Source of the DNA: Alphaproteobacteria bacterium
GTDB lineage: Bacteria; Pseudomonadota; Alphaproteobacteria; SMXP01
Direction of reading: 5' to 3'
Assembly: GCA_965248815.1 (NCBI GenBank)
Contig: CBDFKK010000008.1
Span: 1,493,720-1,557,719, forward strand
Length of the DNA stretch: 64,000 nucleotides
The notes beneath the pieces were generated by a model. It searched no databases. It worked only from the letters and a program-made list of their open reading frames with translations, and had not been told where the DNA came from. Below, in pieces: positions 16,254-38,436 of the stretch (the stretch's first letter is position 1; the number at the start of each line of letters is the position of its first letter). The translations under genes and the position numbers were made by a program.

Positions 16254-17049
16254 AGTAAGCCTGATCGGGTGTCTGGCGGTCAAGCGATGAATGCGGTCTC
16301 TTGGTGTTATAAAAGACCAAATATTTGCCGAGGGCGGCTCGGGCTTGTGGAACATTGCCATAGGCATGCAGATAGACCTCCTCGTATTTGACCGTGCGCC
16401 ACAGCCGTTCAACAAAGACATTGTCCCGCCACGCTCCCTTGCCATCCATGCTGATGGCGATTTCAGCATCCTTCAGGATTTGTGTGAAAGCGATGGAGGT
16501 AAACTGCGAGCCCTGATCGGTGTTGAAGATGTCCGGCTTACCGTAACGGGCCAGTGCTTCTTCAACGGCTTCAATGCAAAAGTCTGCTTCCAGTGTGATA
16601 GAGAGCCGCCAGGACAGGACACGCCGGCTGAACCAGTCAACCACTGCGGCCAGATAAACAAAGCCCCGTGCCATTGGAATGTAGGTGATATCCATCGCCC
16701 AGACCTGATTGGGTTGGGTGACCGGCAGCTTACGCAACAGATAGGGATAGATTTTGTGGCCCGGTGCAGGCTTGGACGTGTTCGGGCGGCGATAAATAGC
16801 CTCAAGCCCCATACGCTTCATCAGTGTTGTGACGTGCAGGCGGCCAACCTTGTATCCTTCACCAAGCAATAGTCCCTGCAGCATCCTGCTGCCTGCAAAG
16901 GGATAGTCGAGATGCAATTCATCAATCCGGCGCATCAGTGCCAGATCACCGACCGATACGGGACGGGGCTGATAATAGACGCTGCCCCGGCTGATCTTGA
17001 GCGCCTTGGCCTGACGGCTGAGCGAGAGTTTATGTTTGCGGTCGATCAT
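16219..17049 (-). CDS. IS3-family transposase OrfB (DDE integrase core)
   Basis: 276 aa with the rve-type core ...WAMDITYIP...NTDQGSQFTS... Confidence 0.8.
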   Translation of the reverse strand: MIDRKHKLSLSRQAKALKISRGSVYYQPRPVSVGDLALMRRIDELHLDYPFAGSRMLQGLLLGEGYKVGRLHVTTLMKRMGLEAIYRRPNTSKPAPGHKIYPYLLRKLPVTQPNQVWAMDITYIPMARGFVYLAAVVDWFSRRVLSWRLSITLEADFCIEAVEEALARYGKPDIFNTDQGSQFTSIAFTQILKDAEIAISMDGKGAWRDNVFVERLWRTVKYEEVYLHAYGNVPQARAALGKYLVFYNTKRPHSSLDRQTPDQAYFNVLQPIPVAA

Positions 17050-17357
17050 TTTCTTGCGCTCGGCAATCCCGCCTTGGTGAGCGCATCGCCTAAAAAATCA
17101 TTCTCAAGCGTCAGCTCCCCAATCTTGGCATGGAGCCTCTTCACATCAACACGGGGTGCAGGCAGCGGTGATTTACCCTCCCGCCCAAAAACACCCGCTG
17201 CACCCTCAAGGAGCTGATCTTTCCATTGCTTGATCTGGTTAGGATGAACATCAAACTGCTGAGCGAGTTCTCCCAATGTCTGCTCACCGCGAACGGCCGC
17301 AAGGGCCACCTTCGACTTGAACGCAGGTGTATGATTGCGACGTGGTCGTCTTGCCAT
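17046..17357 (-). CDS. IS3-family transposase OrfA (HTH/leucine zipper); likely start at MARRPRR
   Basis: NHTPAFKSKVALAAVRGEQTLGELAQQFDVHPNQIKQWKDQLL is a Transposase_8-like HTH. The track ORF extends to 17408. Confidence 0.7.
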   Translation of the reverse strand: MARRPRRNHTPAFKSKVALAAVRGEQTLGELAQQFDVHPNQIKQWKDQLLEGAAGVFGREGKSPLPAPRVDVKRLHAKIGELTLENDFLGDALTKAGLPSARK

Positions 17358-17508
17358 AGTGGATCTCCTGTTGCCGGCGATCATGCCGCCTACAGGCCAA
17401 AATTCCACTTATCTCAACTGTGCAGATTTCCCGAGCCACTTCTAAGGCGATTCTTATAGAGATTTTGACAATTCAGTACTGAAATGGAGCGAACCTCTAT
17501 TTCGCAAA

Positions 17509-19482: not shown

Positions 19483-19703
19483 TCCAATTTAACGAGCTGC
19501 AATGCCCTTTCAAAAGTTCGCGAATAATTTGGTTCGGGTCGCATCGTCACGAAGTGCCCGCGAAAAGCCCACGATTCAAGAATGTGTAACTCTTTAAGCG
19601 TTCTTTTGGAGCGGAAATGCGTTATCGCAATAAGCGATTTTCAACTTAAATTACGGCCAGATTCAGCACCAAATCTCAAATATTTCGTTCTGGATGGACC
19701 GAC

Positions 19704-21863
19704 TTACGGAATTGAAGGTACGCGCCAGATTATTGCGCGATCATCTGCAAAGACTTTTTGAACTCTCGCATTGTTGGTCAACAGATCATATTGGGGCGGC
19801 CAGCGGCTCATGCTCCACGTTGTCACAAGTACATATTCAACATCGCTTGACGCTAGATTTTTCACAAACTGGTCGCTCGAAACTTGAGGAGAAAAGCGAA
19901 ACCAGTCGTCACCCTCGTTTCGCCAATCACTCCACCAGCCCTCCGCCTCCTCACGCCATCTCTCATGTAGCGGTCTTAGAAGAGTTCCATCGTCATCAAT
20001 GGCAACCGGTATGTGCTGAAGACTGCGCCCAAAAATTGGATAGTACTTGGTATACATATGGGGATCCGACATGATGAATGTGATCCGACTACCGCCCGGC
20101 AGACTCTCAACCGCCTTGACAACAGGCCCTAAAGCTTTTTCATCGCTCCCCTCGAAAAATACCTCTGTCTTATAGTCTTTCAACACTGGATAGCTGAAGA
20201 ACAACGCGGCACTTACCACTAGAAGGAGAACGGCCGAGCCAAAAAGTGGTGAAAAATGGATCGCTATTTTTCTAGGCATAATCAAGCTCAGAGTGAGAAT
20301 CCCACTCGCGATAAACAAAAATTTCATATCGACTAAGAGTGTTCCAACAAATGCAATACAACAGTACTGTGCCACTCTGTTTTGAGCCGTTAAGAAAAAA
20401 AGAAGAACGCCCATCAACACAGCTGCACTTAGCCGACGGATTTCGGGGATGAAGTCAGCATAGGGGCGGTTTCCACCTGCGAAAAACGGCTGGAACGGAT
20501 ACAGCAGAATGAGTACGACAATGATAGCCAGGATAAGAAGCTTTAGGTCTAGTGTACTACTTTCATCTGTTGCAGTTTGATAACCTGTTTCAAAGTATCG
20601 CTTCTTAATGTCAAACATGACAAGAATAACTCCCGCGACTGCTATCACGCCCGGGAGTTGAGTTGGCTCTACTATTGACCGATACCACTTTCTGATATTC
20701 ACCAAATCACTGAACCAGTGATCCATCCAGAAAAACAGCGATGTGCGACTTATGGCTTCGCGGTCAAATGGGCCGTCAAAAAATAGTACTTCCGCGGGGA
20801 AAAACGGATTGCCCGTCGCAATCAAATTCCGGAAGTACCAAACGCCTCCGGTTAGTGAGACCGCTGCGAAGCCTATGGCAAGAGCTACTAGGAAATTTCC
20901 AAGTTCAGCTCTTTTGAAAAAAATGACGCCCCAGCCCATGAACAAGAAAACAACTGAATCCAAATATGAAGCCTTAAAACCGAGCACTAAACCCGCTGCT
21001 ATTGAGCTAAATATATAGTTGGCCCACAGATCTTTTTGATCAATAGAGTCGCGCGTTGACAACGCAAGAAACGCTAAGGAGCACATAAACAGGGACGCAG
21101 CCGCAGCACTTGTAGCGCTGAAAGTAGACATCTGCCATAAATAGAGTGGTGAGGCCACACATACGAATGCCCCCGCTACACTTTGTAGACTATTATTTGT
21201 GACTCGATGGACAATCAAATAAATTGATAGTGCGGCCAAGGGTAGCCAGATGAGCGACGTAAGGCTGACAAAAGTGTCGTCCGAATACGGCAACATAAAC
21301 CAAGCCACGACGAGTTCCGAAGAAATTGGAAAATAAGCTTGATAGGTGAAGTTTGTATAGTTGAGGCTGCCGCTTGTAACGATTTTTGCTGGTATCGCGG
21401 CATGATAGGCAAGCTCGTCCCATCCAACAGTCCAGTTTGGAATGGCCTTCAGAATTGCAGTCTGGACCAAGAAGACGACCAAAAATGAAATTATCGAAAT
21501 TTGAAGAAATTTTCCATAGAGATCGCTGCTTTGATGGAACTCAATCGTTTTCCAATTGAGCAAAGCAGCCAATGACAATTGCTTAGATGGACTTGGAAGC
21601 AGAATTACAATTCCAAGAATGATTACGGAAGCAATGAGTACTGAGGAAGGCGCGAACACTCCAAAGTATGCCAATACAAGTGATTCCGTGTGCACAAGAA
21701 AAATAAACAACAACAAGGTGGAAAGGCACGCGACTACTTTGTTCTTATCATCTCCCAGGAATGATCGCAGCAAAATGGCCGATGCAAGGATAGAGGCGTT
21801 GGACAAAACAAAGACTATTGTGCCCGAGAACCCAGACGCCAAAGTGAATAAAGTATCCGTCAT
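19704..21863 (-). CDS. Large polytopic membrane protein with C-terminal soluble domain; GT-C-like (ArnT/PMT-like) glycosyltransferase candidate
   Basis: 719 aa with more than 12 predicted TM helices followed by a roughly 170-aa hydrophilic C-terminal domain. It lies in the low-GC (about 40%) island. The family call rests on architecture only. Confidence 0.3.
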   Translation of the reverse strand: MTDTLFTLASGFSGTIVFVLSNASILASAILLRSFLGDDKNKVVACLSTLLLFIFLVHTESLVLAYFGVFAPSSVLIASVIILGIVILLPSPSKQLSLAALLNWKTIEFHQSSDLYGKFLQISIISFLVVFLVQTAILKAIPNWTVGWDELAYHAAIPAKIVTSGSLNYTNFTYQAYFPISSELVVAWFMLPYSDDTFVSLTSLIWLPLAALSIYLIVHRVTNNSLQSVAGAFVCVASPLYLWQMSTFSATSAAAASLFMCSLAFLALSTRDSIDQKDLWANYIFSSIAAGLVLGFKASYLDSVVFLFMGWGVIFFKRAELGNFLVALAIGFAAVSLTGGVWYFRNLIATGNPFFPAEVLFFDGPFDREAISRTSLFFWMDHWFSDLVNIRKWYRSIVEPTQLPGVIAVAGVILVMFDIKKRYFETGYQTATDESSTLDLKLLILAIIVVLILLYPFQPFFAGGNRPYADFIPEIRRLSAAVLMGVLLFFLTAQNRVAQYCCIAFVGTLLVDMKFLFIASGILTLSLIMPRKIAIHFSPLFGSAVLLLVVSAALFFSYPVLKDYKTEVFFEGSDEKALGPVVKAVESLPGGSRITFIMSDPHMYTKYYPIFGRSLQHIPVAIDDDGTLLRPLHERWREEAEGWWSDWRNEGDDWFRFSPQVSSDQFVKNLASSDVEYVLVTTWSMSRWPPQYDLLTNNARVQKVFADDRAIIWRVPSIP

Positions 21864-22458: not shown

Positions 22459-23246
22459 TTGATAACGCAAATTGGAATTGCGACAATTGCGGACCAATGT
22501 ATGGGTAGCCCTGCAAATCCCAGCATCGATGACGATCAATTGACCTATGCCTTTAAGGTGCTTGAGGAAAACCAAGACGCACGTTGGACGTTTCTTTTCT
22601 TGCATCAGCCCTTGTGGAATTTCGAAGATGCAAAGAATTGGCAGGCACTGGAAGACGAGCTGAGATCTCGGAAATATACAGCCTTTGCCGGTCATACTCA
22701 CACTTACAAGTATGATACAAGCGACGATGAGCAGAGCGATCACATTACTTTAGGAACGACTGGCGGAACTTCTCCATTGCGAGGAGAGGTCTATGGCGCA
22801 TTCGATCACGTCACCTGGGTTACGGCAAAGAAAGATGGGCCTGTTATAGCCAATCTCTCTCTCGAAGGAATAACGGACAAATACATTACGAGCCCCACAT
22901 TTGCTGCGACCTTCGAAGAAGCCAAGATCTTTCGCCCAGCTTTGTGGCAAACAGATGAGTCAATAGGTGTGGGGTCAGAAGGCGAGATTGAGCTGACGAT
23001 TGTAAATCCGTTCGAAGCCGCCCTTGACTACGAATTCGAAAGTCTTGCCGGTCCGGACTATCACGTTCTGTCTGAGCTCCCGTCAGGACAACTCGAACCG
23101 CAAGCTCAGAAAACAGAGGTCATTCGTGTACGGATTGCCGAAGACGAGCGCAAGCCGCTATTTTTCACTGCGCTGACTGAAACAAAGCTCAATGACCAAA
23201 AGACGGCACAATGGCGTACGCAAATCGGCTTTCTGCCTGAGCCGCA
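22459..23246 (+). pseudogene. Calcineurin-like metallophosphoesterase fragment (N-terminus missing; 3' end abuts truncated IS copy A)
   Basis: Contains FLFLHQPLW and AGHTHTY (GHxH) motifs. The N-terminal metal-binding motifs are absent, because a stop lies immediately upstream of the TTG at 22459. The track ORF runs 25 nt into the IS. Confidence 0.45.
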
Positions 23247-24177
23247 GTTTAATCCTTTCTCTTTGCAATAGAATAGTTTGGCCGCGCCCGAAGTAGACGT
23301 CGGCAGGCGTGAGGTTCTTCAGGCTCTCGTGATATCGCTGGTGGTTGTAGTGGCCGACGAAGTCTTCGATCTGCGCTTCCAGGTCGCCAGGCAGATAATA
23401 GTTTTGCAGCAAGATGCGGTTCTTGAGCGTCTGATGCCAACGCTCAATTTTGCCTTGCGTCTGCGGATGATAAGGCGCACCGCGTACATGCTTCATGCCT
23501 TGATCATCCATCCAGTCAGCAAGATCGCCAGCAATATAAGACGGGCCATTGTCGGACAGCAGGCGCGGCTTGTGAACGACATTAACTTGATCGAGCCCGG
23601 ATTCGGCGAGAGCTGCTTCCAGCGTTTCGGTAACGTCCTCAACCCTCATCGTGGTGCAGAGTTTCCACGCAATGATATAGCGCGAGAAGTCATCCAGGAT
23701 CGTCGACAGGTAAAACCAGCCCCAGCCGATGACCTTGAGATAGGTGAAGTCTGTCTGCCACATTTGATTTGGCGCCGTGGTCTTGTCTGTAAACTCGTCA
23801 GCCGCCTTGATGACAACAAAGGCTGGGCTGGTGATCAGATCCAGAGCCTTGAGCAGGCGATACACCGAAGCTTCAGATACGAAGTAGCCTTGCGTATCGG
23901 TGAACCTGACAGCCAGCTCGCGCGGCGACAACTCAGGCTCTTCAAGCGCTAGATCAACGATCTTGTCTCGAACGTCATCGGGAATACGGTTCCATACCCG
24001 TCCCGGCTTTGGAGACCGATCTTCCAGCGCTTCCACACCGCCAGTTTGATACTGATCGTACCAGCGATAGAATGTTGTCCGTGGAATGCCGAGTGTATCC
24101 AGCGTGCGTTTAACTGGCAGATGTGATTGCTCAACCAGTCCGATGATCTCGGCCTTCTCGGATGCAGGATATCTCAT
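23247..24177 (-). CDS. IS3-family transposase OrfB, copy A (3' end lost; the track ORF reads through into flank to 23158)
   Basis: N-terminal HTH (RYPASEKAEIIGLVEQSHLPVKRTLDTLGIPRTTFYRWYDQY) plus DDE rve core. The C-terminus differs from copies B and C because the IS is truncated. Confidence 0.75.
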
Positions 24178-24548
24178 TCGATATCCTCCCCATCCCCGAT
24201 CATGCTTTTTTTCAGAAGGCGCAGTTCCAACGCTTGTTCGGCAACGACTTCCTTGAGGTCTTGCGCTTCGCGCCGTAAGTCCTTCACCTCACCAGTATTA
24301 GCGGCCCGCGCCGTATCGCCTGCCAGCCGCTTCTTGCCAGCTTCAAGAAACTCCTTCGACCAGGTGTAATACATGCCCTGAGCGATGCCTTCCTGACGGC
24401 AAAGCTCGGCAATGCTGTCTTCGCCGCGAAGTCCGGCAAGCACAATCCGTATCTTCTCTTCAGCTGAATAGCGTTTGCGCGTCCAGCGGCGAATATCCTT
24501 GACTGTACGTTCCGCAGCTTCTTGATGGCGCACTGTTTTGTCTCTCAT
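24174..24548 (-). CDS. IS3-family transposase OrfA, copy A
   Basis: 124 aa. YSAEEKIRIVLAGLRGEDSIAELCRQEGIAQGMYYTWSKEF is an IS3 OrfA HTH. It overlaps OrfB by ATGA, and a GAAAAAAAG heptamer lies near its 3' end. Confidence 0.8.
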   Translation of the reverse strand: MRDKTVRHQEAAERTVKDIRRWTRKRYSAEEKIRIVLAGLRGEDSIAELCRQEGIAQGMYYTWSKEFLEAGKKRLAGDTARAANTGEVKDLRREAQDLKEVVAEQALELRLLKKSMIGDGEDIE

Positions 24549-24634
24549 CGTCCACTCCTCTCGTGTGACGATGGGCCAAAAACTCTCCCTTACGCAATTC
24601 CCTCAATCTGTCCCATGAGTGCTGACGCCGGACA

Positions 24635-25142
24635 GACATGGAAACGCGGATCATTATGCCGCACAAGATGGTTCCTGCAAAAATCAGCAATTTAAGTGCC
24701 ACAAAATTTTGGGCGATTGGTTTGTACTCAATAAACGAATAGATGGCGGCGACCGCCAGAGTAATCGTTAGGGCCCAGCGCAGCTGAATATCGAACTTGC
24801 TCCATGGCTTTTTTCTTTCCTCGTCCTTTTCGATATGCAGCCACCACACTAACGCCAGCCAGGCGAAACTAAAGGTCCAAATTGCGATGAGCCATGTTTC
24901 GGAAATTGTTAGGTAACCCTTCACGGCTGTAAGCGTGAAGCCGCTAGGGATCATAAGCACCATGGTGGTGCGCGGTGCCATGTCGATATCGCCAACAATG
25001 CGAGCGAGCAACAGGCGCGTTTTCGGGTCATACTGCGGATCGTTACGGAATCGGCCGGCATAAAAAACACCGAGGTCACCGCCAAGCCAGTACACGAACA
25101 AGAGTACATGTAATAAGACGATCAAGCTTTCCCAAAATTCCA
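24635..25142 (-). pseudogene. Membrane protein gene (unknown family) whose 3' end is fused to IS copy A
   Basis: The track ORF 24460-25209 has four or five TM helices. Its last 58 residues (VRRQHSWDRLRELRK...) are translated from the IS left end, so the native C-terminus is lost or replaced. Confidence 0.4.
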
Positions 25143-25308
25143 TTGAGGGCCTCCCGAAATAGCACTTCTGTGTAGCAGATTCGAACGTGGTGTGCCGTAC
25201 CGATTTCACTCAGTGGCCGAAAAGGAACTTTTAGAATTAGTTCGCACCGTGAAGAGATTGATGGGACTATCCTGAGCTTTGGCAAGAGGATTGGTAGGTA
25301 GAGACGAC

Positions 25309-28857: not shown

Positions 28858-29541
28858 TTGACCACGCTCCCGCCGAAAAGAAACCTGGCCCAAAGACTAA
28901 GAAAGTTTTTCGGTCAGCGCGAAAGTAGTAATTTCGAAAACTCTCGCCAGTATTGGGAGGACCGATATAGTCTTGGCGGGCATTCCGGCAGAGGCTCATA
29001 CGGAGCCCTGGCGGACTACAAGGCCGCCTTTCTCAATGAATTCGTCGAAGAACACGACATTCAATCCGTTCTAGAATTTGGTTGCGGCGACAGCAATCAA
29101 CTTTCTCTTGCCAACTATCAGAATTATTTAGGGGTCGATGTTTCACCGACCGCAATTGAAGCCTGTCGGAAGAAATTCGATCGTGATGAGTCGAAATCCT
29201 TTTGCCTATTGAAAGATTTTGCTGCGGAAAAAGGAGACTTAGCGCTTTCTTTGAACGTGATTCATCATCTCGTTGAGGACAGTGTATTTGAAAGTCACAT
29301 GCGGGTTCTATTCGACAGTTCCAAAAAATTCGTCATCGTTTACTCTTCGAATTTCGAACGAGATGAGGGATTGTCTGATCACGTTCGCCATCGACAGTTC
29401 ACAAATTGGGTAGAAAAATATATGCCGGATTGGTCTTCGGCCGAAAAATTCGAAAATCCGCGCGCTTTAAATAGAGACCAAAACACACGAACAACGGCAG
29501 ATTTTTATGTTTTTTCCAGAAAAACTGCCGAAACGTATTAG
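28858..29541 (+). CDS. Class I SAM-dependent methyltransferase-like protein
   Basis: VLEFGCGDSNQ is methyltransferase motif I. The gene lies in a lower-GC stretch. Confidence 0.45.
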   Translation: MTTLPPKRNLAQRLRKFFGQRESSNFENSRQYWEDRYSLGGHSGRGSYGALADYKAAFLNEFVEEHDIQSVLEFGCGDSNQLSLANYQNYLGVDVSPTAIEACRKKFDRDESKSFCLLKDFAAEKGDLALSLNVIHHLVEDSVFESHMRVLFDSSKKFVIVYSSNFERDEGLSDHVRHRQFTNWVEKYMPDWSSAEKFENPRALNRDQNTRTTADFYVFSRKTAETY

Positions 29542-29781: not shown

Positions 29782-30945
29782 GTGCACATAGCCATGACCG
29801 GAATACCAACTGCTCTGCGCAATTGTTTGTTGATCGCAGCACTCGTAGCCACGGCAGGTGCGGCCGGTTATTATTTTGCTCTATCGCTCAATTATCCGCA
29901 TGCCGCAATAGGTGTGTCTATTGGGGGGGTGGCTACCATTGGCGCCATCACATTAAGAACTGCAGGGCTGCGTACGGCAGCCCTGTCTCTTACCTCCATC
30001 TTCCTAATATTGAGCCTATTGGAGTCGGGTCTCTATTTTTGGACCAATTCTCAGGTCAAGTCGCAACGAGACTACGATCCTAATTACAGGACCGGACCCC
30101 TGGGATACCATCTCAATCCATCAACCACAGTAACGGATCGAAAGTACTATCCGGACGGCACTCCCATTTATGAAGTGTCGTACAGTATTGGGCCCGACGG
30201 GCTGCGCGTCGTACCAGGAACGAATACGAGGAGCGGCGCCCCTCACGTCCTATTTTTCGGCGGATCATTCGTAATGGGAGAGGGCCTCAATGATGATCAA
30301 ACAATTCCATACTATTTCTCCGAAGCCTTGGGCGGCCAATACCACGTATTGAATTTTGGCGCTCCCGGCTACGGCACACATCAAATGTTGCGTTCCCTCG
30401 AATTGGACCTACCAAAGCAATCGATTACTGGCCCGACGCCTTACGCGATCTATCTCTTTTTTCCTGGGCATATTCACCGCGTTACCGGTCAAATTAATTG
30501 GGGACACGATGGCCCAATGTATGAGTTGACTGGAACTGGTGAGCCCAAATATGTCGGTGCCTTTAATCGATCCAGCAAGATTCTCAACTCGATCTATACG
30601 AGGTTTCTGACATATGACTTTGCCATAAGACCATTTACAGTCTCAAACGACCAAAAAATTAATCTCACTCTAAGCATTGTGCAAAAATCTCGTGATTTGC
30701 TGCGTGATAAATACGACGCCCAACTCATCGTTCTTCTGTGGGATAACAATTCAGAAATTTCAAATGAATTGCACTCTCGTTTGTTGCAGACGGATCTGGA
30801 ATTCGTTTTAAAATCAACTGCAACGAAAGATAAAGATTGGAAGAAGTACATTATTGCCGGTGACGGACATCCGTCTGCCGCGGCAACGGAGCCGATCGGA
30901 AAAATGCTAGCGCGCCATGTTGAGAACAAGAAAGCCCCCCAATGA
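29782..30945 (+). CDS. Membrane-anchored protein with GDSL/SGNH-hydrolase-like block ([11 protein letters not shown])
   Basis: N-terminal TM helices are followed by a soluble domain containing a Gly-Asp-Ser-like block. The family assignment is tentative. Confidence 0.3.
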
Positions 30946-31082: not shown

Positions 31083-31156
31083 TGTCCGTCGTCAGATAAA
31101 TTGGAACAGATTTCGATTTGAGCAAGCTGAGTCTTTGGCTCATCTGTTGTTTCAAT

Positions 31157-32137
31157 TTAAGCAGCGGCTTTGCGGTGTTGCAAGCGCCGGTGTTCGATTG
31201 TTTTTCGTTTAATCCTTTCTCTTTGCAATAGAATAGTTTGGCCGCGCCCGAAGTAGACGTCGGCAGGCGTGAGGTTCTTCAGGCTCTCGTGATATCGCTG
31301 GTGGTTGTAGTGGCCGACGAAGTCTTCGATCTGCGCTTCCAGGTCGCCAGGCAGATAATAGTTTTGCAGCAAGATGCGGTTCTTGAGCGTCTGATGCCAA
31401 CGCTCAATTTTGCCTTGCGTCTGCGGATGATAAGGCGCACCGCGTACATGCTTCATGCCTTGATCATCCATCCAGTCAGCAAGATCGCCAGCAATATAAG
31501 ACGGGCCATTGTCGGACAGCAGGCGCGGCTTGTGAACGACATTAACTTGATCGAGCCCGGATTCGGCGAGAGCTGCTTCCAGCGTTTCGGTAACGTCCTC
31601 AACCCTCATCGTGGTGCAGAGTTTCCACGCAATGATATAGCGCGAGAAGTCATCCAGGATCGTCGACAGGTAAAACCAGCCCCAGCCGATGACCTTGAGA
31701 TAGGTGAAGTCTGTCTGCCACATTTGATTTGGCGCCGTGGTCTTGTCTGTAAACTCGTCAGCCGCCTTGATGACAACAAAGGCTGGGCTGGTGATCAGAT
31801 CCAGAGCCTTGAGCAGGCGATACACCGAAGCTTCAGATACGAAGTAGCCTTGCGTATCGGTGAACCTGACAGCCAGCTCGCGCGGCGACAACTCAGGCTC
31901 TTCAAGCGCTAGATCAACGATCTTGTCTCGAACGTCATCGGGAATACGGTTCCATACCCGTCCCGGCTTTGGAGACCGATCTTCCAGCGCTTCCACACCG
32001 CCAGTTTGATACTGATCGTACCAGCGATAGAATGTTGTCCGTGGAATGCCGAGTGTATCCAGCGTGCGTTTAACTGGCAGATGTGATTGCTCAACCAGTC
32101 CGATGATCTCGGCCTTCTCGGATGCAGGATATCTCAT
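31157..32137 (-). CDS. IS3-family transposase OrfB, copy B (complete, 326 aa)
   Basis: Identical to copy A over the shared part. The C-terminus ...RKTIEHRRLQHRKAAA matches copy C. Confidence 0.85.
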   Translation of the reverse strand: MRYPASEKAEIIGLVEQSHLPVKRTLDTLGIPRTTFYRWYDQYQTGGVEALEDRSPKPGRVWNRIPDDVRDKIVDLALEEPELSPRELAVRFTDTQGYFVSEASVYRLLKALDLITSPAFVVIKAADEFTDKTTAPNQMWQTDFTYLKVIGWGWFYLSTILDDFSRYIIAWKLCTTMRVEDVTETLEAALAESGLDQVNVVHKPRLLSDNGPSYIAGDLADWMDDQGMKHVRGAPYHPQTQGKIERWHQTLKNRILLQNYYLPGDLEAQIEDFVGHYNHQRYHESLKNLTPADVYFGRGQTILLQRERIKRKTIEHRRLQHRKAAA

Positions 32138-32508
32138 TCGATATCCTCCCCATCCCCGATCATGCTTTTTTTCAGAAGGCGCAGTTCCAACGCTTGTTCG
32201 GCAACGACTTCCTTGAGGTCTTGCGCTTCGCGCCGTAAGTCCTTCACCTCACCAGTATTAGCGGCCCGCGCCGTATCGCCTGCCAGCCGCTTCTTGCCAG
32301 CTTCAAGAAACTCCTTCGACCAGGTGTAATACATGCCCTGAGCGATGCCTTCCTGACGGCAAAGCTCGGCAATGCTGTCTTCGCCGCGAAGTCCGGCAAG
32401 CACAATCCGTATCTTCTCTTCAGCTGAATAGCGTTTGCGCGTCCAGCGGCGAATATCCTTGACTGTACGTTCCGCAGCTTCTTGATGGCGCACTGTTTTG
32501 TCTCTCAT
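32134..32508 (-). CDS. IS3-family transposase OrfA, copy B
   Basis: Identical to the copy A OrfA. Confidence 0.85.
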   Translation of the reverse strand: MRDKTVRHQEAAERTVKDIRRWTRKRYSAEEKIRIVLAGLRGEDSIAELCRQEGIAQGMYYTWSKEFLEAGKKRLAGDTARAANTGEVKDLRREAQDLKEVVAEQALELRLLKKSMIGDGEDIE

Positions 32509-32594
32509 CGTCCACTCCTCTCGTGTGACGATGGGCCAAAAACTCTCCCTTACGCAATTCCCTCAATCTGTCCCATGAGTGCTGACGCCGGACA

Positions 32595-33834
32595 GATAAA
32601 AACCTAAGATGAGATAGAGGATCGTGCTCTTGCCAGCGCCGTTGGGCCCAATGATCGCCACCTTCGCATGTGGGCTTATGTCCAAATTGACGTTGTCAAG
32701 AATCTGCTGCCCTCCATAGCCAAAGGAAACACCAGCAAGTGAAACGGCGCCATCGAAGGAAATCTGCTGCGTGCCGTTGTAAGGCTCAAGTTCATCCGTT
32801 TTGGCAAGATTACGCAGAGTAATGAGAGACTCGTTTCCTGTAATAATGGAAGGCAAGGCGCGTATCGCCGAATTTGCATAGCCATTCAAGAGACCGGCAG
32901 CTACGTAAAAAGATAAAAGTTCGCCGATGGTCATGCTGCCTGTGGCAACCGCAGCGCCTCCCACGACCAGTATTACGATTCCTGCAAATCCCGTCACGGT
33001 GGTTTGCACTTGATTCATGATCGCATAGCTAAACGCCATTTTCTCGCCAGTTGCGCGAAGTTGGTCAATTTGTTCAGACTGACGACTGAGCTCTTCTCTC
33101 TCGAAGGACTGAATCTTCGTCAAATCCATATGCTTCAAAACGAACTGGATACCTTTGCTAAATCGCTCAAAGGATCTTTGGAAAACATAGACATTCTGCT
33201 TGGCAAGCTGGCTGGTTAGACGCGCCGCAAATAACAGAAGTGGCAAAATTAATAGACTGACCAAAAGCAAGAGCCAGTTCAAAAAAATAAGCACCACAAA
33301 CAAGGCAAGGCTTGAGAAAACCGAAGGAAGGAGACTCGTCATGAGCCCATTGCTCATGTTGTCGACGCGCTCCGTATCTTGAACGATGCGTGCATGAATG
33401 GTGTTTCGATCCATGCGGGTATGACTGTCCCTTGAAAGCTTGTATAGGACGTCGAGTAGGTCGCACCGAAGCTCCTTGATAGCACCTTTGATGACTTTCA
33501 AGTTTGCCCTGCGTAGCCAGAGCGAAATCCCGCTATTGAGAAATCGAATGACAAACACGCCGGCGCCGACATAGACCAGCAGCAGAATGTCGCCATTCGG
33601 AATAGCATCATCAAATTCCACTTTAATGAAATAAAGAATAGGTAAGACCAAAAGCGACTGTGCAGATGCAATTAATCCGTACGCACCAAGCTTTTTTTCC
33701 CGACCTTGGAAGTATCGCGCGAAATATTTCCAAGCATCGAGGTCGAAAAGCTCTTTGTTGTCGTTATCTGGCGGTGCGTCCGCCAAATCCGGCGCCACGA
33801 CGTTATCTATCACTCTAGAAATCGATTTCAGCAC
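32595..33834 (-). pseudogene. ABC exporter (fused TMD-NBD, MsbA/McjD-like), truncated just after Walker A by the IS copy B junction
   Basis: Six-TM exporter domain followed by VAIIGPNGAGKSTILYLILGFY (Walker A). The Q-loop, ABC signature and Walker B are absent. The last 11 track residues are IS-derived. Confidence 0.65.
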
Positions 33835-33894
33835 GGCGACGAACCACTTATCGTAATTACCATTCAGGACGTTGCTTGCAGCAAGCGTTTATTT

Positions 33895-35103
33895 TTAGAC
33901 AGTCTTTTTAACTAGGCGCTCGTTGGGCGTGTCTCGCTGCGCGAGTTTCCGCCAAACCCGACCGAAGCCCTTCTTGACCAGCAAAACCAAGACTTCCATC
34001 CTCCCACGCAAGGCCCAGCGATATTGCAAATATTCGGGAAAGCCGAATAGACTCCGCACCAGCCCCCGGTGGTTTGCGAAGCGCCGGTATTCCGCATACG
34101 CAAGTATCAATGGTCCAAGAAACAGTTGATAGCTAATTCTTTTGTCTCGCATAACATAGTTATTTTCGAAAATCTCCATGGCTCCAATTTTTTGTGAAGC
34201 CAGTTCATTCAAGACCCAATCAGGCACCGGTTGGTCCATACGCTGCTCCAGATACGAAAAACCCTTACGCAAACGCAGTCCCAATTCACGCTCTTTGCCA
34301 AGATCGATCAAACGTCGCCAATCAATCTCGTCGTAAGAGCAATTCATGATCATCACGGCGTCAGCGATCCACCGAATTGATGGCATCGGATTCCAACGAA
34401 TCCCGTGAACAACGACGTGAAAGAGCATATCCGTCGGGTCAAGCATTTGGGTGGGCGTACCGTTGAAATCAAATGGTACACATGAATCCCAGAAATCCTG
34501 ATCGACATCACTTTGGCAACATTCAAACAAAGCGTGCCAATGTAAGTCGACTTCGCCTTTGTCTGGATCGCGAAATTGTATGGCATGGCGATAGATGAGG
34601 TCTTTGTCTGAAGCTCGTTGCGTGCGTTTCCAACCGGTACTCTCCAATTGCTCTATGGCGGTACGGGCCTTGTCGGTTGGAACGAGAATATCCAGATCGC
34701 TCATTGGCCTTAAAGCAATGTTGTCGTAGTACTGCAAAGAAAGTGGCGCACCTTTTAGCAGGAGGGTTTTGACGCCGGCTTTGTTCAAGTCCACCAGCGC
34801 TCGCTGTGTTGCGTAAAACAATTGATGTGTTTCGTACCAAGAGCGCCGGTAGATCCCTTTGAGTCGCGCCATAAAAGGATCGGAAACACCAAGCTTGTGA
34901 ACGTTATGGAAAAGGAGCGGCAGCAGGCGAAACGATCCTTGACCGAATTCACCTTCAGGATCGATCCTCTGCCTCCATTCAGTCCAGGCCTCTATTGCCT
35001 TTTCCCCGTCGAGCAAGGCTGCCCTCAACAAGAGTTCCTGCTCAAGTGTGGGCCACAGCCCCTCTTCATCAAAAGCGTCAACTAAATAGGGTGAACTGGA
35101 CAT
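33895..35103 (-). CDS. Nucleotidyltransferase-family protein (PF14907 'uncharacterised nucleotidyltransferase'-like)
   Basis: 402 aa. LLLKGAPLSLQYYDNIALRPMSDLDILVPTDKA fits the GS-x(n)-DxD minimal-nucleotidyltransferase motif of PF14907. Confidence 0.55.
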   Translation of the reverse strand: MSSSPYLVDAFDEEGLWPTLEQELLLRAALLDGEKAIEAWTEWRQRIDPEGEFGQGSFRLLPLLFHNVHKLGVSDPFMARLKGIYRRSWYETHQLFYATQRALVDLNKAGVKTLLLKGAPLSLQYYDNIALRPMSDLDILVPTDKARTAIEQLESTGWKRTQRASDKDLIYRHAIQFRDPDKGEVDLHWHALFECCQSDVDQDFWDSCVPFDFNGTPTQMLDPTDMLFHVVVHGIRWNPMPSIRWIADAVMIMNCSYDEIDWRRLIDLGKERELGLRLRKGFSYLEQRMDQPVPDWVLNELASQKIGAMEIFENNYVMRDKRISYQLFLGPLILAYAEYRRFANHRGLVRSLFGFPEYLQYRWALRGRMEVLVLLVKKGFGRVWRKLAQRDTPNERLVKKTV

Positions 35104-35436
35104 AACAGAAAAAAGTTTTCCAAAAATCTATGCAACGTGGCTTTTAAGAAGGCGCGCCGGCGGCGATATCTAGTCGTGACATTTTTCCTCGGTGCGGAAA
35201 GACAGCAGGAATCCATGCAGCTGGTTGCAAATTTCTGGTGCTGCGCCTAGCTATCCTTTGGTGTCGGCCAGCCGGTCTCATCAACGTCATGAATCGGATC
35301 TAGGAGGAGAAGATCTTGCATATCCGAATACACATCAAGAACGGGGATCTGGAACGGTGTTTTTGACTCATCAGTTGAAACTGCGTTGCCAGACGAGTCT
35401 AGACCGGCTCCATCGGCGCCGGCGTCCTGTACGGGC

Positions 35437-35724
35437 TCAATCAAATGTTCTTCCGTCAGCCGCATTATAATGTTCTTCCGTCAGCCGCATTATAAAGTCA
35501 GCAAGTGCAGCTTCCATATCCTGGCGGGGTGCATCATATTTGCTTTCAAGCGCCTTGATGAGCTGCCCGCGATGCAATCCCTGCTCGATCCAATCCCATA
35601 GCTCGGCGCCCGTATTCTGAATGCTGTAATAGTTGCCAGATTTCAGATTCATAATCACGACTTCGCCGTCGATCGTTTCGCTCACGACGGAAGGCGCCTT
35701 AACTCGATATTTTTCCTTCTCCAT
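35437..35724 (-). CDS. PqqD-family RiPP recognition element (lasso B1-like), C-terminally frameshifted by a 25-bp tandem duplication
   Basis: MEKEKYRVKAPSVVSETIDGEVVIMNLKSGNYYSIQNTGAELWDWIEQGLHRGQLIKALESKYDAPRQDMEAALADFIMRLTEE is a PqqD-fold consensus pattern. Removing one repeat unit joins it in frame to the ORF 35247-35465. Confidence 0.65.
   Translation of the reverse strand: MEKEKYRVKAPSVVSETIDGEVVIMNLKSGNYYSIQNTGAELWDWIEQGLHRGQLIKALESKYDAPRQDMEAALADFIMRLTEEHYNAADGRTFD
35446..35495. repeat. Perfect 25-bp tandem duplication (2 x tgttcttccgtcagccgcattataa)
   Basis: The units at 35446-35470 and 35471-35495 are identical. The length is not a multiple of 3 and it sits in the 3' end of the PqqD-family gene. 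Confidence 0.9.
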
Positions 35725-35811
35725 CCCGACCCCGATACTAAATTTGCTTCGCCAGATTAGGATATTGAGCAATTTCCGTTCCTAGGCGATCTATTTTCTG
35801 TACCACCAATT

Positions 35812-35955
35812 CTACCTGAAAACCTCGGATTTGATCCGTTTGTCTCTCACCCACCCCGCATCATCCGACTCAATATTAATAGTATTGAACAATTCTGCCA
35901 ATTCCGCACAGCGTGAATTGTACTTGGGATAGTTAACGTATTCGTGAATTTCCAT
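35812..35955 (-). CDS. Small 47-aa ORF immediately upstream of the PqqD gene; speculative RiPP precursor candidate
   Basis: It encodes MEIHEYVNYPKYNSRCAELAELFNTINIESDDAGWVRDKRIKSEVFR, has no strong SD sequence, and sits between the sulfotransferase stop and the PqqD start. Position is the only support; it does not fit the canonical lasso leader/core rules. Confidence 0.12.
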   Translation of the reverse strand: MEIHEYVNYPKYNSRCAELAELFNTINIESDDAGWVRDKRIKSEVFR

Positions 35956-36639
35956 CGAAGTAGGCTATCGGCAATCTAGATGGGCCAGGCTCGGACTAAT
36001 GTCTATCTCCGTTTTGCCGCCCAATAGCGACGCCTCGCATTCAAAATGAGCTTCTTGAATCTGTTTTCGCGCCAAGTCGCCACGCTTTCACGGGCCCATT
36101 CCAGCTTGTCGAGTTCAGTCAATGCTTCCAATACATCGTCGGGATTCTTAAATCGATCTAAAATCGTTGACGTGTTTTGCTTTTTGAATGATGGAAAATC
36201 GATTTCGAAATTTCGAACGCCAATAAATCTAAAAAGATCGCTTACAGTTTTTCTAGTCGCCAAATCAGAATATTCAATCTTAAGGATCGTGTTTTTGGCA
36301 CAGTTCTCGATCTGTTGTTCAACTGACGTATATTGCGCGGTCATTGAATCAATGTATTTTACAAATGCTTCCTTCTTAAATGACACTTTGACTTGACCAT
36401 TGGTAGACTGATCGACCATCAGCCACTCTTGAGTTTTGCTACCGATTGTTTGAGAGGAATATTGAGCAAGCAGATTCCGACGAGAAAGAATGATTTTCTT
36501 TATGTCTTGTGCGGTCAGGCAATGGTGCAATGCCTGGGGATCATGTGTGACCTGTCTGACATCAGCGCCTGTGGGACAGATGGAGTTGATTGTGTAACGG
36601 AGGATTTCTGGCTCATCGTCGTGACCGAAGGGAACGCAG

Positions 36640-37014
36640 ATGATCCAGAAATCCATGAGTTTGAAGGACGGCGCCGAGACGGCGGTACGGGACATCCGGC
36701 GCAAGACGCGCAAGCAATATTCAGCTGAAGAGAAGATCCGGATTGTGCTCTCGGGCCTGCGCGGCGAGGACAGCATCGCCGAGCTGTGCCGTCGGGAAGG
36801 GATCGCCGAGAGCCTCTACTACAGCTGGTCGAAGGAGTTCCTGGAAGCCGGCAAGAAGCGGCTTTCGGGGGATACCGCCCGCCAGGCGTCCTCGGGCGAG
36901 GTCAAGGACCTGCGCCGCGAGAGGCATGACCTCAAGGAAGCGCTTGCCGAACAGGTGCTGGAGAACCGGCTGCTTAAAAAAAGCATGATCGGGGATGGGG
37001 GAGACGGCGCATGA
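36640..37014 (+). CDS. IS3-family transposase OrfA, copy C
   Basis: 124-aa homolog of the A/B OrfA. It ends with overlap ATGA onto OrfB. Confidence 0.85.
   Translation: MIQKSMSLKDGAETAVRDIRRKTRKQYSAEEKIRIVLSGLRGEDSIAELCRREGIAESLYYSWSKEFLEAGKKRLSGDTARQASSGEVKDLRRERHDLKEALAEQVLENRLLKKSMIGDGGDGA
36976..36982 (+). promoter_or_regulatory. A_AAA_AAA slippery heptamer (putative -1 programmed ribosomal frameshift site for OrfAB fusion)
   Basis: CTTAAAAAAAGC sits in the OrfA 3' end, 30 nt before the OrfB ATG. The equivalent GAAAAAAAG occurs in copies A and B. Confidence 0.4.
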
Positions 37015-37991
37015 GATACCCCGCATCGGAGAAGCTCGAGATCATCCGCCTAGTCGAGCGATCCCATCTCCCGGTGCTGCGGACGCTGGACAAGCTCGGC
37101 ATCCCGGCAACGACGTTTTACCGATGGTACGACCGGTATTTGCGTGGTGGCGTACAAGCATTGGAAGACCGGTCTCCCAAGCCAAAACGCGTGTGGAACC
37201 GCATCCCCGATGATATTCGAGAGCGGATCGTCGATATGGCTCTTCAGGAACCGGAACTGAGCCCGCGCGAGTTGGCAGTGCGGTTCACTGATACGCAAAG
37301 CTATTTTGTATCCGAAGCTTCAGTGTATCGCCTGCTCAAAGCTCTTGATCTGATTACCAGCCCGGCCTTCGTGGTCATCAAGGCTGCCAATGAGTTCCGC
37401 GACAAGACCACGGCGCCAAATCAAATGTGGCAGACCGACTTCACCTACCTCAAGGTCATCGGCTGGGGCTGGTTTTATCTCTCTACGATTCTTGATGACT
37501 TCTCGCGCTACATCATTGCGTGGAAGCTGTGCACCACGATGAGAGCTGAAGACGTCACTGATACGTTGGAAATGGCTCTGGAGGCATCGGGTTGCGATCA
37601 GGCAAATGTCGCACACAAGCCGCGTCTGCTATCTGACAATGGTTCAAGTTATATTGCCGGCGATCTTGCTGACTGGATGGATGATCAAGGCATGAGGCAT
37701 GTTCGCGGCGCGCCGTATCATCCGCAAACGCAAGGCAAAATCGAGCGTTGGCATCAAACGCTCAAGAACCGCATCTTGCTGGAAAACTATTATCTGCCCG
37801 GTGACCTAGAAGCGCAGATCGATGAGTTCGTGGGTCACTACAATCACCAGCGCTATCACGAGAGTCTGCAAAACCTCACGCCCGCAGATGTTTACTTTGG
37901 GCGCGGCCAAACCATTCTATTGCAAAGAGAAAGGATCAAGCGAAAAACGATCGAGCATCGGCGCTTGCAACACAGCAAAGCCGCTGCTTAA
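37011..37991 (+). CDS. IS3-family transposase OrfB, copy C
   Basis: 326 aa with HTH plus DDE rve core. It is colinear with the copy B OrfB. Confidence 0.85.
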   Translation: MRYPASEKLEIIRLVERSHLPVLRTLDKLGIPATTFYRWYDRYLRGGVQALEDRSPKPKRVWNRIPDDIRERIVDMALQEPELSPRELAVRFTDTQSYFVSEASVYRLLKALDLITSPAFVVIKAANEFRDKTTAPNQMWQTDFTYLKVIGWGWFYLSTILDDFSRYIIAWKLCTTMRAEDVTDTLEMALEASGCDQANVAHKPRLLSDNGSSYIAGDLADWMDDQGMRHVRGAPYHPQTQGKIERWHQTLKNRILLENYYLPGDLEAQIDEFVGHYNHQRYHESLQNLTPADVYFGRGQTILLQRERIKRKTIEHRRLQHSKAAA

Positions 37992-38436
37992 ACTGATACA
38001 ACAGATGAGCCATATACTCCGCTAGCTCAAACCGAAATCTGTTCCAATTTATCTGATGACGGACAGTGTGACCAGGAGCTTCATGCCCAAAGCTAGATGT
38101 TTTCCCGGAGTAGCATAGAGGTTTTCAATAAACCTAACTGGGTTTGCATTTCTCTCCTTGAGCGATTCGCTGTCTTCGATCCGATTGCCTCTGTTCATGA
38201 AGATAGCATTGGGATTAAGTACTTCGTAGTGGCAAGCTACAAGCGGGTGCTGGTCGAGAATAGCGCAGAGGAGGTTTGAGCCTGTTCGGCCACCTGAAAT
38301 AATCACAAATTTCTGCAACTGACGCGCCCCACGAGACCAAACAAAAGTCGCCACTCAGATGCTAGGCAAGGATCTAGAACCGTGCAATGGTGCGTATAGC
38401 TCATTCTGGACGGTACTCCAAACAACTGAGGACGCT

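Follow-up and report, generated by a model that had tools for sequence, protein, structure and literature searches.

We consider it reasonably probable that a locus in the 64,000-nucleotide stretch of alphaproteobacterial DNA analysed here (the window) was pseudogenised recently, that it belongs to a widespread and uncharacterised family of gene clusters with neither a cyclase nor a peptidase, and that members of this family operate the pathway proposed below. Judged from the sequence of the closest intact relative (L002), which is syntenic past both ends of the window locus, the ancestral gene order is a NodH-like sulfotransferase, a tailed PqqD-type RRE, a PF14907 nucleotidyltransferase (NTase) and an MsbA-like ABC exporter, followed by an HprK-like kinase fused to GT2 and by four more GT2 genes, the fusion and these last four being carried by L002 itself. 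The family is an unstudied type of cluster that unites a peptide-recognition protein with a kinase, an NTase, several glycosyltransferases and an exporter.

A preliminary description of this DNA listed five elements in order on the minus strand between positions 32595 and 38354, and each of them is present there. Together they combine a lasso-B1-type RRE, a PF14907 NTase, an MsbA-like exporter and a sulfotransferase with a 47-codon ORF. The recent inactivation proposed in that description is borne out by three lesions: an IS3-family insertion in the sulfotransferase gene, a 25-bp duplication in the PqqD gene, and an insertion element, IS-B, that replaces ~5.4 kb.

Features of the window locus and its flanking insertion elements (positions are those of the window)
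Feature	Position	Strand	Details
GT2 remnant, N-terminal 47 codons	30942..31082	+	PF00535 E 3e-13; truncated by IS-B
IS-B, IS3-family, 1512 bp	31083..32594	-	ends from three-copy alignment
IS-B orfB	31157..32137		
IS-B orfA	32134..32508		
ABC exporter 5' part, MsbA-like TMD-NBD	32595..33834	-	413 native codons; truncated just after Walker A
NTase, 402 aa	33895..35103	-	intact; PF14907 E 7e-42
PqqD-type RRE gene	35247..35724	-	PF05402 E 1e-13; frameshifted
47-codon ORF	35812..35955	-	present, upstream of PqqD gene
Sulfotransferase 3' part	36003..36552	-	NodH-like
IS-C, IS3-family, 1513 bp	36553..38065	+	82% identical to IS-A and IS-B
Sulfotransferase 5' part	38066..38354	-	start codon at 38354; PF13469 N-terminal P-loop region

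Removal of IS-C and one copy of GTGTGACC rejoins the two sulfotransferase parts into an in-frame ORF of 276 aa. IS-C is a simple insertion, flanked by the 8-bp target duplication GTGTGACC (36545-36552 and 38066-38073), which is longer than the 3-5 bp typical of IS3-family target duplications. IS3 family membership is nevertheless evident from the HTH_Tnp_1 (orfA) and rve (orfB) domains, the ends TGTCCGGCGTCAG / TGTCCGTCGTCAG with their TG...CA terminal inverted repeats, and the A7G slippery site in AAAAAAAG. The original label of the interrupted enzyme, Stf0-like, has to be replaced: the reconstructed protein gives no match to PF09037 (Stf0) at E values up to 1, and its sole sulfotransferase profile match is PF13469 (30.7 bits). 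The only PDB relative found is the LPS sulfotransferase NodH (PDB 9vki, E 3.6e-16), which aligns with residues 14-248 and hence across the IS junction. The NodH-like character of the protein points to a carbohydrate substrate. The flank upstream of this gene is syntenic with L002 3-427.

The frameshift previously noticed in the PqqD gene arises because 25 bp are repeated exactly in tandem (35444-35468 and 35469-35493). When one copy is removed, the gene encodes a protein of 150 aa that aligns end to end with its homologues and is 81% identical to one of the same length. The NTase retains the motif G...D136-x-D138 and has the same length as its L002 orthologue, with 84% identity and codon changes that are 125 synonymous and 67 non-synonymous. 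Profile matches thus agree with the earlier assignment of both proteins, as a PqqD-family recognition protein and a PF14907-type nucleotidyltransferase, respectively.

The exporter fragment matches ABC_membrane (E 1.8e-19) and only positions 1-35 of ABC_tran, has MsbA as its best NCBIfam model, and shares 87-95% amino acid identity with the full-length gene of L002 until its native sequence stops at ...GPNGAGKSTILYLILGFY, the junction with IS-B. Truncation by an IS after Walker A had been described correctly, but it is more than a simple insertion. Specifically, IS-B lacks a target-site duplication (compare the flanks TTTTTATC and ATCAGTGG), and its other side abuts a GT2 remnant orthologous to the final GT2 gene of L002 (81% amino acid identity, 9337-10023; 81% nucleotide identity, 9883-10004), so that the element marks a ~5.4-kb deletion. 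Indeed, nothing in the window corresponds to L002 4509-9882; by this comparison the missing DNA includes the ATPase half of the ABC exporter, the HprK-like kinase-GT2 fusion, three GT2 genes and the greater part of another, although it could lie elsewhere in the genome instead of being deleted. IS-B itself matches annotated IS3-family elements on plasmids of Rhodobacterales and Rhizobiales at 73% over its full length. An SGNH hydrolase and a methyltransferase adjoin the GT2 remnant in the window.

The contexts compared comprise loci L001, L002 and L004-L007, plus 80 metagenome loci. In the long loci, those whose sequence continues for 8 kb or more downstream of the RRE gene (n=17), HprK-like and GT2 genes are present in every case, the NTase in 15 of 17 and the ABC exporter in 11 of 17. 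Where this downstream stretch is 1.5 kb or longer, 44 of 47 loci carry the HprK-like kinase, and its signature HAAAVG..GAVLITGKGGVGKST..ADDY (P-loop/ADD) is kept in 22 sequences. The tailed RRE is therefore constantly associated with an HprK-like kinase and GT2s, and usually with an NTase. Since the exporter is absent from a third of the long loci, export may not be obligatory.

The RRE bears a C-terminal tail that is near-invariant (FxxPxL..[YF].DM.DLLLLDPIH.VD..GWP) and occurs once per locus. In an alignment of 92 sequences, P119, D126, M127, L131, L133, D134, P135, I136, H137, G143, W144 and P145 are invariant, and among 78 unique tails position P-3 is F in 76 and Y in two, with L at P+2 in 75. 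The beginning of the tail, FxxPxL, looks like the leader motif of lasso peptides and of the peptides made by linear polyphosphorylated peptide (LPP) clusters, the latter being [Y/W]xxPx[L/V/I] (PMC13381572). The best structural matches of the AF2 model of the RRE are the lasso B1 proteins TbiB1 (5v1v) and 6jx3, with a TM-score of ~0.9 over the target, and both of these structures were solved with leader peptide. Model confidence (pLDDT) is ~95 for the RRE, below 50 for the linker, ~90 for residues 111-120, ~81 for residues 121-130, which include a strand at 121-124, and low (55-58) for residues 131-150, the most conserved segment of the tail.

From the pLDDT values and secondary structure of this model, we propose that FxxPxL may sit in the leader-binding site of the RRE in cis, and that the DLLLLDPIH.VD..GWP segment would be offered to partner enzymes, for which it could be a docking motif or the actual acceptor. 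Following the precedent of pseudomycoidin and the LPPs of Bacillota, the HprK-like kinase would phosphorylate a hydroxyl on the putative RRE-held acceptor, and the NTase and GT2s might then assemble a phosphate-linked glycan on it. In the lineage of the window, the NodH-like enzyme could sulfate a sugar, and the ABC pump would export the product. Known HprK-like RiPP kinases phosphorylate Ser only, and the 78 unique tails hold no invariant Ser or Thr, which counts against this explanation; the position that follows the conserved aromatic holds S or T in 69 of the 78 tails and, among the remainder, N, K, A, H or V. Regardless, the pathway is inoperable in this genome, because the window contains neither the kinase gene nor a full-length cluster GT2 gene, the pump has no ATPase half, the RRE is severed from its own tail and the sulfotransferase is split.

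The preliminary description favored the remains of a lasso-peptide cluster, either inactivated, with its cyclase and leader peptidase gone, or served by core enzymes from another site; the 47-codon ORF would then be a candidate precursor gene. This reading is largely refuted, and we regard it as highly improbable. Its appeal rests on the RRE, which is nearest to lasso B1 proteins in fold and in sequence (NCBIfam lasso_PqqD_Bac, E 2.7e-16), and on the occurrence of NTase, sulfotransferase and HprK kinase genes with some lasso clusters. However, the score of 59.5 bits falls under the model cut-off of 80, and a B1-type RRE is the only lasso hallmark present: a C cyclase, a B2 protein and a precursor with Asp/Glu at core position 7-9 were not found in the material searched. 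As had been noted, no Asn_synthase cyclase (PF00733) occurs among window ORFs of at least 420 aa. None is present in L002, despite its synteny across the locus, or in L004-L007, none among 19 neighbouring ORFs of at least 470 aa, and Asn_synthase is not among the families matched by at least two of 68 neighbouring ORFs. Likewise, the transglutaminase-like B2 (PF13471) is absent from the Pfam lists of these five loci, and 59 neighbouring ORFs of 95-200 aa contain no recurring family and hence no recurring B2. Pfam scans of unassigned ORFs in 19 further long loci reveal no Asn_synthase and no recurring B2 or signal peptidase beside the module. The relatives examined are instead GT-rich loci without a lasso cyclase or a recurrent precursor gene, a pattern that the preliminary description itself had named as telling against a lasso product.

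The 47-codon ORF exists as described, but its status as a precursor gene does not survive comparison. It resembles L002 only over its first 24 codons, with one synonymous and nine non-synonymous changes versus 226:108 in neighbouring genes (Fisher p = 3.5e-4), and thus bears no mark of purifying selection. A search of 1.84 billion representatives yielded no credible homologue, the other loci have no counterpart, and the lasso leader motif YxxPxL...T at -2 is absent. Judged by these sequence comparisons, it is probably not a gene, and the region may be conserved non-coding DNA or promoter sequence ahead of the PqqD gene.

Two further explanations retain some force. In one, which we consider unlikely, the cluster makes an LPP-like linear phospho-glyco-peptide from a separate precursor that is distant or was missed, and the RRE tail is a regulatory or autoinhibitory pseudo-leader displaced by that precursor. 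The core enzyme set shared with LPP clusters and the leader-like FxxPxL are consistent with this possibility, and pseudomycoidin is still produced when the leader and the B proteins are missing, which shows that precursor logic can be unconventional in this enzyme family. However, none of the small ORFs recurs across the 86 loci, where crude gene calling in the metagenome loci may have missed a small or unusual peptidase or precursor, and the RRE gene of L001 and that of L006 each lie immediately against the gene upstream, so that no precursor gene would fit between the two. Moreover, no leader peptidase of any sort recurs, signal peptidase being absent from the Pfam lists of L002 and L004-L007 and from the recurrent ORF families, and both the LPP and the paeninodin systems have been reported from Bacillota only. 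In the other, which appears quite unlikely, the locus directs synthesis of a surface polysaccharide or glycolipid with no peptide involved: the PqqD-like protein is a scaffold for the kinase, NTase and GT2s, and the cargo that the MsbA-like pump flips or exports is a lipid-linked glycan. Such a role would suit the four to five GT2 genes per locus with GT1/GT4 enzymes, epimerases and GT25 nearby, the NodH-like sulfotransferase, the MsbA assignment of the transporter, and the SGNH hydrolase and methyltransferase beside the GT2 remnant. Nevertheless, an RRE fold with a leader-like tail is more conserved than a generic scaffold requires, the recurrent families in these loci include no polyprenyl-phosphate priming transferase, Wzx/Wzy or Wza-type protein, and the HprK-type kinases of related clusters modify peptides.

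Several known systems share parts of this architecture. Haft's 'HPr-rel-A system' (NCBIfam TIGR04352, TIGR04353, TIGR04355) likewise pairs a PqqD-family chaperone with HprK-related kinases and is likewise uncharacterised. The RRE scores 19 bits against a cut-off of 35 (TIGR04353) and the kinase domain 32-36 against 200 (TIGR04355), far enough under these thresholds that the proteins described here are not members. NodH (PDB 9vki) aligns with nearly the whole reconstructed sulfotransferase, although the match is distant and the window gene, unlike NodH, is clustered with an RRE.

The likeness of the gene set to lasso accessory genes was recognized correctly at the outset: it resembles the tailoring portion of phosphorylated or glycosylated lasso peptide clusters of the paeninodin and pseudomycoidin types (PadeK; PsmK, PsmN). 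These clusters share with the family described here a B1-type RRE, an HprK-like kinase, a PsmN-like NTase containing a D-x-D pair and an ABC exporter, and some of them reportedly begin with a sulfotransferase gene. The accompanying statement that a lasso peptide modified by both sulfotransferase and nucleotidyltransferase is not known to have been characterised is to be set beside pseudomycoidin, a characterised NTase-modified lasso peptide to which PsmK and PsmN attach a phosphate and then a hexose. Unlike these clusters, the window locus and the homologous loci examined encode no C cyclase, B2 protease or lasso precursor, and the family has multiple GT2 genes instead.

The closest known system is the LPP clusters of Bacillota, which encode an RRE, an HprK kinase, an NTase and an MsbA-like pump but no cyclase, in glycosyltransferase-rich loci (Popov et al., Nat Commun 2026, PMC13381572). 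Common to both are a discrete lasso-type RRE, an HprK-like kinase beside it (in the relatives, the window itself having no kinase gene), the lack of a macrolactam cyclase, glycosyltransferase gene surroundings, an uncharacterised NTP transferase (LppN being likened to the PF14907 NTase by description) with an MsbA-like exporter, and an RRE-binding motif of the form aromatic-xxPx-aliphatic. In contrast to LPP clusters, neither an SpI-type (SipW-like) leader peptidase, LppS, nor a discrete precursor with YxxPxVLxHQxIxFETxxS was found; instead, the RRE itself carries FxxPxL with an invariant 20-residue segment after it, the kinase and a GT2 often form one protein, and a NodH-like sulfotransferase is added in the lineage of the window. 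Finally, whereas LPP clusters are reported only from Bacillota, the family described here extends across Proteobacteria, Gemmatimonadota, Dadabacteria, Nitrospirota and similar phyla.

The locus is a defunct copy belonging to an uncharacterised family in which a PqqD-type recognition protein (RRE), a kinase, a nucleotidyltransferase (NTase) and GT2s are combined without a cyclase or peptidase. According to the ORF list and Pfam scans, each element named in the preliminary description is indeed present on the minus strand between 38354 and 32595. That description had interpreted the elements as lasso peptide machinery. The kinship with lasso tailoring enzymes stands, whereas the missing lasso core, the Stf0 label of the sulfotransferase and the small ORF as an element of the cluster do not.

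Features of the locus, insertion sequences, and blocks shared with L002, the closest intact relative locus
Feature	Window position	Strand	Remarks
Sulfotransferase		minus	two pieces
47-codon ORF	35812..35955	minus	from ORF list
PqqD gene		minus	PF05402 match, E 1e-13; broken
NTase	33895..35103	minus	intact PF14907 protein, E 7e-42
ABC exporter	32595..33834	minus	transmembrane domain complete; ATPase domain limited to first 35 profile positions (Pfam)
IS-A	23247..24634		truncated third copy of the IS3-family element, on the minus strand
IS-B	31083..32594		1512 bp; 8-bp flanks unrelated
IS-C	36553..38065		1513 bp; within sulfotransferase gene, between two GTGTGACC copies (36545-36552, 38066-38073)
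Syntenic block	38620-38196		L002 3-427; DNA comparison
Syntenic block	36211-32597		L002 935-4508; DNA comparison
Syntenic block	31082-30961		L002 9883-10004; DNA comparison

Decay of the locus, as originally proposed, is borne out by a PqqD gene frameshifted by duplication, a sulfotransferase gene split by an insertion sequence (IS-C), and a second insertion sequence (IS-B) that stands in place of 5,374 bp. Specifically, the frameshift is caused by an exact tandem duplication of 25 bp, ttataatgcggctgacggaagaaca on the coding strand, at 35444-35468 and 35469-35493. Removal of one copy yields a PqqD protein of 150 aa, alignable over its full length with homologues of the same size. The ends of the insertion sequences were set by aligning the three IS3-family copies of the window. 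IS-C is a simple, recent insertion, and its excision together with one repeat gives an in-frame 276-aa sulfotransferase ORF that is colinear with L002 and NodH across the junction. IS-C is flanked by an 8-bp target duplication, a length confirmed by the restored sulfotransferase frame; duplications made by IS3-family elements are usually shorter, at 3-5 bp. One end of IS-B truncates the ABC gene and the other a GT2 gene of which 47 codons remain, the two being in convergent orientation. IS-A has the same sequence as IS-B over about 1.39 kb, with similarity lost at 23246, inside orfB; its left end is entered by an ORF without a Pfam match (24460..25209). Each of the three lesions looks recent, because the 25-bp copies are identical, the IS-C duplication is intact, and IS-A and IS-B are identical in sequence.

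The transposase ORFs of these copies carry HTH_Tnp_1 and rve domains, and IS-B as a whole is ~73% identical to IS3-family elements annotated on plasmids of Rhodobacterales and Rhizobiales, a hint that the host is alphaproteobacterial. A search of PLSDB plasmids with the locus DNA gave no match. IS-B and IS-C lie in opposite orientations, but an inversion between them would rejoin no broken gene and was rejected.

The ancestral arrangement is represented by L002, a 10-kb ENA contig whose NTase is 84% identical to that of the window. Relative to L002, the window NTase shows that it is still under purifying selection. The three blocks shared by the two sequences establish that synteny extends beyond both ends of the locus. 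The 5,374 bp at L002 4509-9882, for which the window has IS-B and no counterpart, encode the remainder of the exporter's ATPase domain, a 603-aa protein that joins an HprK-related P-loop domain in its N-terminal half to a GT2 in its C-terminal half, and, in addition, three GT2 genes and most of a fourth. The missing target duplication at IS-B fits an IS-mediated deletion. Alternatively, the segment might have moved by translocation to another place in the genome; DNA comparison with L002 finds no HprK-like sequence remaining anywhere in the 64-kb window. Upstream of the GT2 remnant lie a methyltransferase gene (28858..29541, plus strand) and a gene whose 387-aa product weakly resembles SGNH/GDSL esterases (29782..30945, plus strand); the stop of this second gene and the GT2 start share 4 nt. 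L002 does not reach this far. Both genes were probably once part, with the GT2, of a single glycan-modifying locus in convergent orientation to the RRE operon.

Elsewhere in the window, the gamma-glutamyltranspeptidase gene beside the locus (39101-40940, plus strand) consists of two ORFs in different frames that cover PF01019 positions 2-299 and 325-507, and reflects either a further pseudogene or a mistake in the assembly. The segment at ~15000-23000 has a G+C content of 0.44-0.48, versus 0.51-0.59 elsewhere. Within it lie a further IS3-type element (16219..17408), part of an LPG_synthase_TM gene, a methyltransferase and an ORF of 719 aa without a Pfam match (19704..21863). It looks like a mosaic accessory island. 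Neither of two scans of the 64-kb window found tRNA genes or Rfam families at gathering score.

The preliminary description supposed that the locus had lost a lasso core, or that its core enzymes lay at a distance. A search of representative genome contigs with the NTase returned one distant locus only. Around more distant NTase homologues (from a Gemmatimonadaceae MAG, a Dadabacteria MAG and others; loci L001 and L004 through L007, L004 being from GCA_041476545.1), we find the same module: a PqqD protein of ~150 aa, one to three GT2s, an NTase, often an ABC exporter, and an HprK-like kinase, which occurs on its own (~360 aa) or as a GT2 fusion (~600 aa). Precomputed Pfam annotation places no Asn_synthase or transglutaminase-like protein within 10 kb in any of L004 through L007 (4/4). 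In a metagenome scan that started from the PqqD alignment, at least 469 relatives were confirmed among the 600 candidate stretches listed, and 80 loci were kept. Where at least 8 kb lie downstream of the PqqD gene, HprK-like and GT2 genes are each present in 17 of 17 loci, NTase genes in 15 and ABC genes in 11; with at least 1.5 kb downstream, the HprK-like gene is found in 44 of 47.

The unassigned genes of these neighbourhoods likewise fail to supply a lasso core. Among 68 unassigned co-directional ORFs of at least 200 aa, pooled from 19 long loci and scanned with Pfam, the recurrent families are GT1/GT4 (12 ORFs), epimerases (3) and GT25 (3), and no lasso enzyme occurs among families matched twice or more. 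Individual scans of neighbouring ORFs of at least 470 aa revealed no asparagine-synthetase homologue (0/19). The 59 unassigned ORFs of 95-200 aa contain no recurring family at all, and thus no conserved B2 protease or SpI peptidase. In the window itself, those ORFs of at least 420 aa that were scanned have another assignment or no match, and none is a cyclase. The preliminary description had itself named, as evidence against its reading, intact homologous loci that prove to be polysaccharide loci without precursor or cyclase, and as far as the cyclase goes such relatives are what we found; a lost or distant lasso core is contradicted by the absence of cyclase and B2 from the loci examined.

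Gene order around the kinase was compared in L002 (5079-6890), L006 (11178-13035), L038, L041, L047, L057 and others. The fused kinase-GT2 gene, as in L002, is placed after the ABC or NTase gene, and the free ~360-aa kinase gene directly after the RRE gene, such that fusion or fission is accompanied by a change in gene order.

The 47-codon ORF might have served as the precursor, but its substitution pattern, its lack of homologues and its lack of a leader motif speak against this, and we treat the ORF as unsupported. Compared with L002, similarity is confined to the first 24 codons, of which 14 are identical, and the sequences diverge thereafter. The ten codon differences comprise one synonymous and nine non-synonymous changes, versus 226 synonymous and 108 non-synonymous changes in the NTase, the N-terminal part of the ABC protein and the PqqD tail (Fisher p = 3.5e-4). 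A phmmer search of 1.84 billion representatives gave a single match, to a 901-aa protein, with no stretch significant alone, and the other loci contain no counterpart. Its conserved nucleotides may be regulatory; a promoter-like hexamer pair lies inside the ORF, but the region is no richer in such sites than its shuffles. When 1,600 small ORFs drawn from 86 loci were all compared with one another, only alternative-frame shadows of kinase, GT2 and NTase genes emerged. The apparent recurrent small-ORF 'families' were therefore rejected, and no separate precursor gene is detectable. The tail motif described below also occurs once per locus, with no second copy that would signal a separate precursor.

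A search with the restored PqqD protein matches at least 2,392 distinct proteins (90%-identity clusters) at E <=1e-5; nearly all of the best 120 of these have lengths of 140-160 aa and match over the whole query. In an alignment of 92 sequences, the C-terminal tail is conserved above the PqqD domain itself, with P119, D126, M127, L131, L133, D134, P135, I136, H137, G143, W144 and P145 invariant. The tail consensus is FxxPxL..[YF][ST]DM[QE][DE]LLLLDPIH[DE]VD..GWP. Among 78 unique tails, the motif opens with F in 76 cases and with Y in two, the Pro+2 residue is L in 75, and the residue following the conserved aromatic is S or T in 69, and so not always. The start of the tail fits [Y/W]xxPx[L/V/I/F/A], the leader motif for binding of discrete RREs in lasso and LPP (linear polyphosphorylated peptide) systems.

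We built an AlphaFold2 model on the 92-sequence alignment and read its pLDDT and secondary structure rather than its coordinates. Confidence is high in the RRE domain (residues 1-90, pLDDT about 95), drops below 50 in a linker (94-106), recovers to about 90 at the start of the FxxPxL segment (111-120) and about 81 at residues 121-130, which include a strand at 121-124, and falls to 55-58 in the most conserved tail segment (131-150). Structurally, the model is closest to lasso B1 proteins whose solved structures include their leader peptides, namely TbiB1 (5v1v, 5v1u) and 6jx3. From the model, we infer that the FxxPxL segment would dock onto the RRE in cis, in the fashion of a leader, and that DLLLLDPIH...GWP could serve as a short motif, either folding upon binding to a partner enzyme or being modified itself. 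The 25-bp duplication in the window also copies an ATG, with GGAAG ~9 nt upstream, so that the tail forms its own 72-codon ORF (35247..35465, minus strand; MRLTEEHLIEP...GWPTPKDS), which overlaps the end of the truncated RRE ORF by 29 nt. The lesion therefore splits the RRE from its tail peptide, rather than plainly destroying the gene.

The restored sulfotransferase matches PF13469 (30.7 bits, cut-off 27), and a Pfam profile search gives no PF09037 match. Its only solved relative is the 'LPS sulfotransferase NodH' (E 3.6e-16, residues 14-248). The Stf0-like label must be withdrawn, and with NodH as the only solved relative, a sugar is a likelier substrate than a peptide. The enzyme occurs only in the window and L002, being absent from the other loci, and is therefore a lineage-specific accessory. 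The kinase domain of the relatives retains the HprK signature ...HAAAVG..GAVLITGKGGVGKST...ADDY. The window NTase carries a D136-x-D138 motif, and the equivalent D134/D136 pair of the pseudomycoidin enzyme PsmN is required for hexose addition to phospho-pseudomycoidin.

By analogy and from the structural model, we propose that an acceptor presented by a self-loaded RRE, with the tail acting as its own leader, would be phosphorylated, would then receive a glycan built by the NTase and GT2s, and would finally be sulfated and exported. What, then, is the role of an RRE that bears its own 'leader', as this near-invariant tail implies? A bolder and, in our estimate, rather unlikely reading is that, in the tailed RRE, a recognition element is naturally fused to a leader-like peptide of its own. 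Either the invariant C-terminal segment would be the acceptor, making the RRE a self-primed phospho-glycosylated protein that in this lineage is sulfated, or the fusion would work as a 'leader-in-cis' device through which kinase, NTase and GT2s stay switched on for leaderless substrates. If true, each version would amount to biosynthesis without a separate precursor or leader peptidase across many Gram-negative phyla. The pathway suggests a possible route to sulfated glycans anchored on a peptide or protein. The window copy is dead and therefore physiologically unimportant for its host. This locus led to a large family (at least 2,392 tailed-RRE clusters at 90% identity and at least 469 metagenome stretches) that extends the enzyme set to Gram-negative phyla of soil and sediment, with no cyclase, peptidase or precursor detected.

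The literature searched contains no description of a family that joins a tailed RRE to kinase, NTase and GT2 genes, and these proteins score far under the cut-offs of Haft's HPr-rel-A models. The clusters for pseudomycoidin and paeninodin encode an RRE, an HprK kinase, an ABC pump, sometimes an NTase and in some cases a sulfotransferase, but always with a cyclase, which we did not detect in the tailed-RRE loci examined. The linear polyphosphorylated peptides described by Popov et al. in May 2026 (PMC13381572), stated to be restricted to Bacillota, are made by clusters that encode an SpI-type peptidase, an RRE, an HprK kinase, an NTP transferase as well as an MsbA-like pump, lack a cyclase, and are sited amid capsule glycosyltransferase genes. 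Their precursor leader is YxxPxVLxHQxIxFETxxS, with polyphosphorylation at Ser3 (PMC13381572). The enzyme logic is common to both families. Unlike the LPP clusters, however, the tailed-RRE family resides in Gram-negative phyla, has no detected peptidase or discrete precursor, carries the leader-like motif fused to the RRE, and often has its kinase fused to a GT2. The tailed-RRE family connects the phospho-glycosylated lasso peptides with the LPPs, reported in 2026 from Bacillota only.
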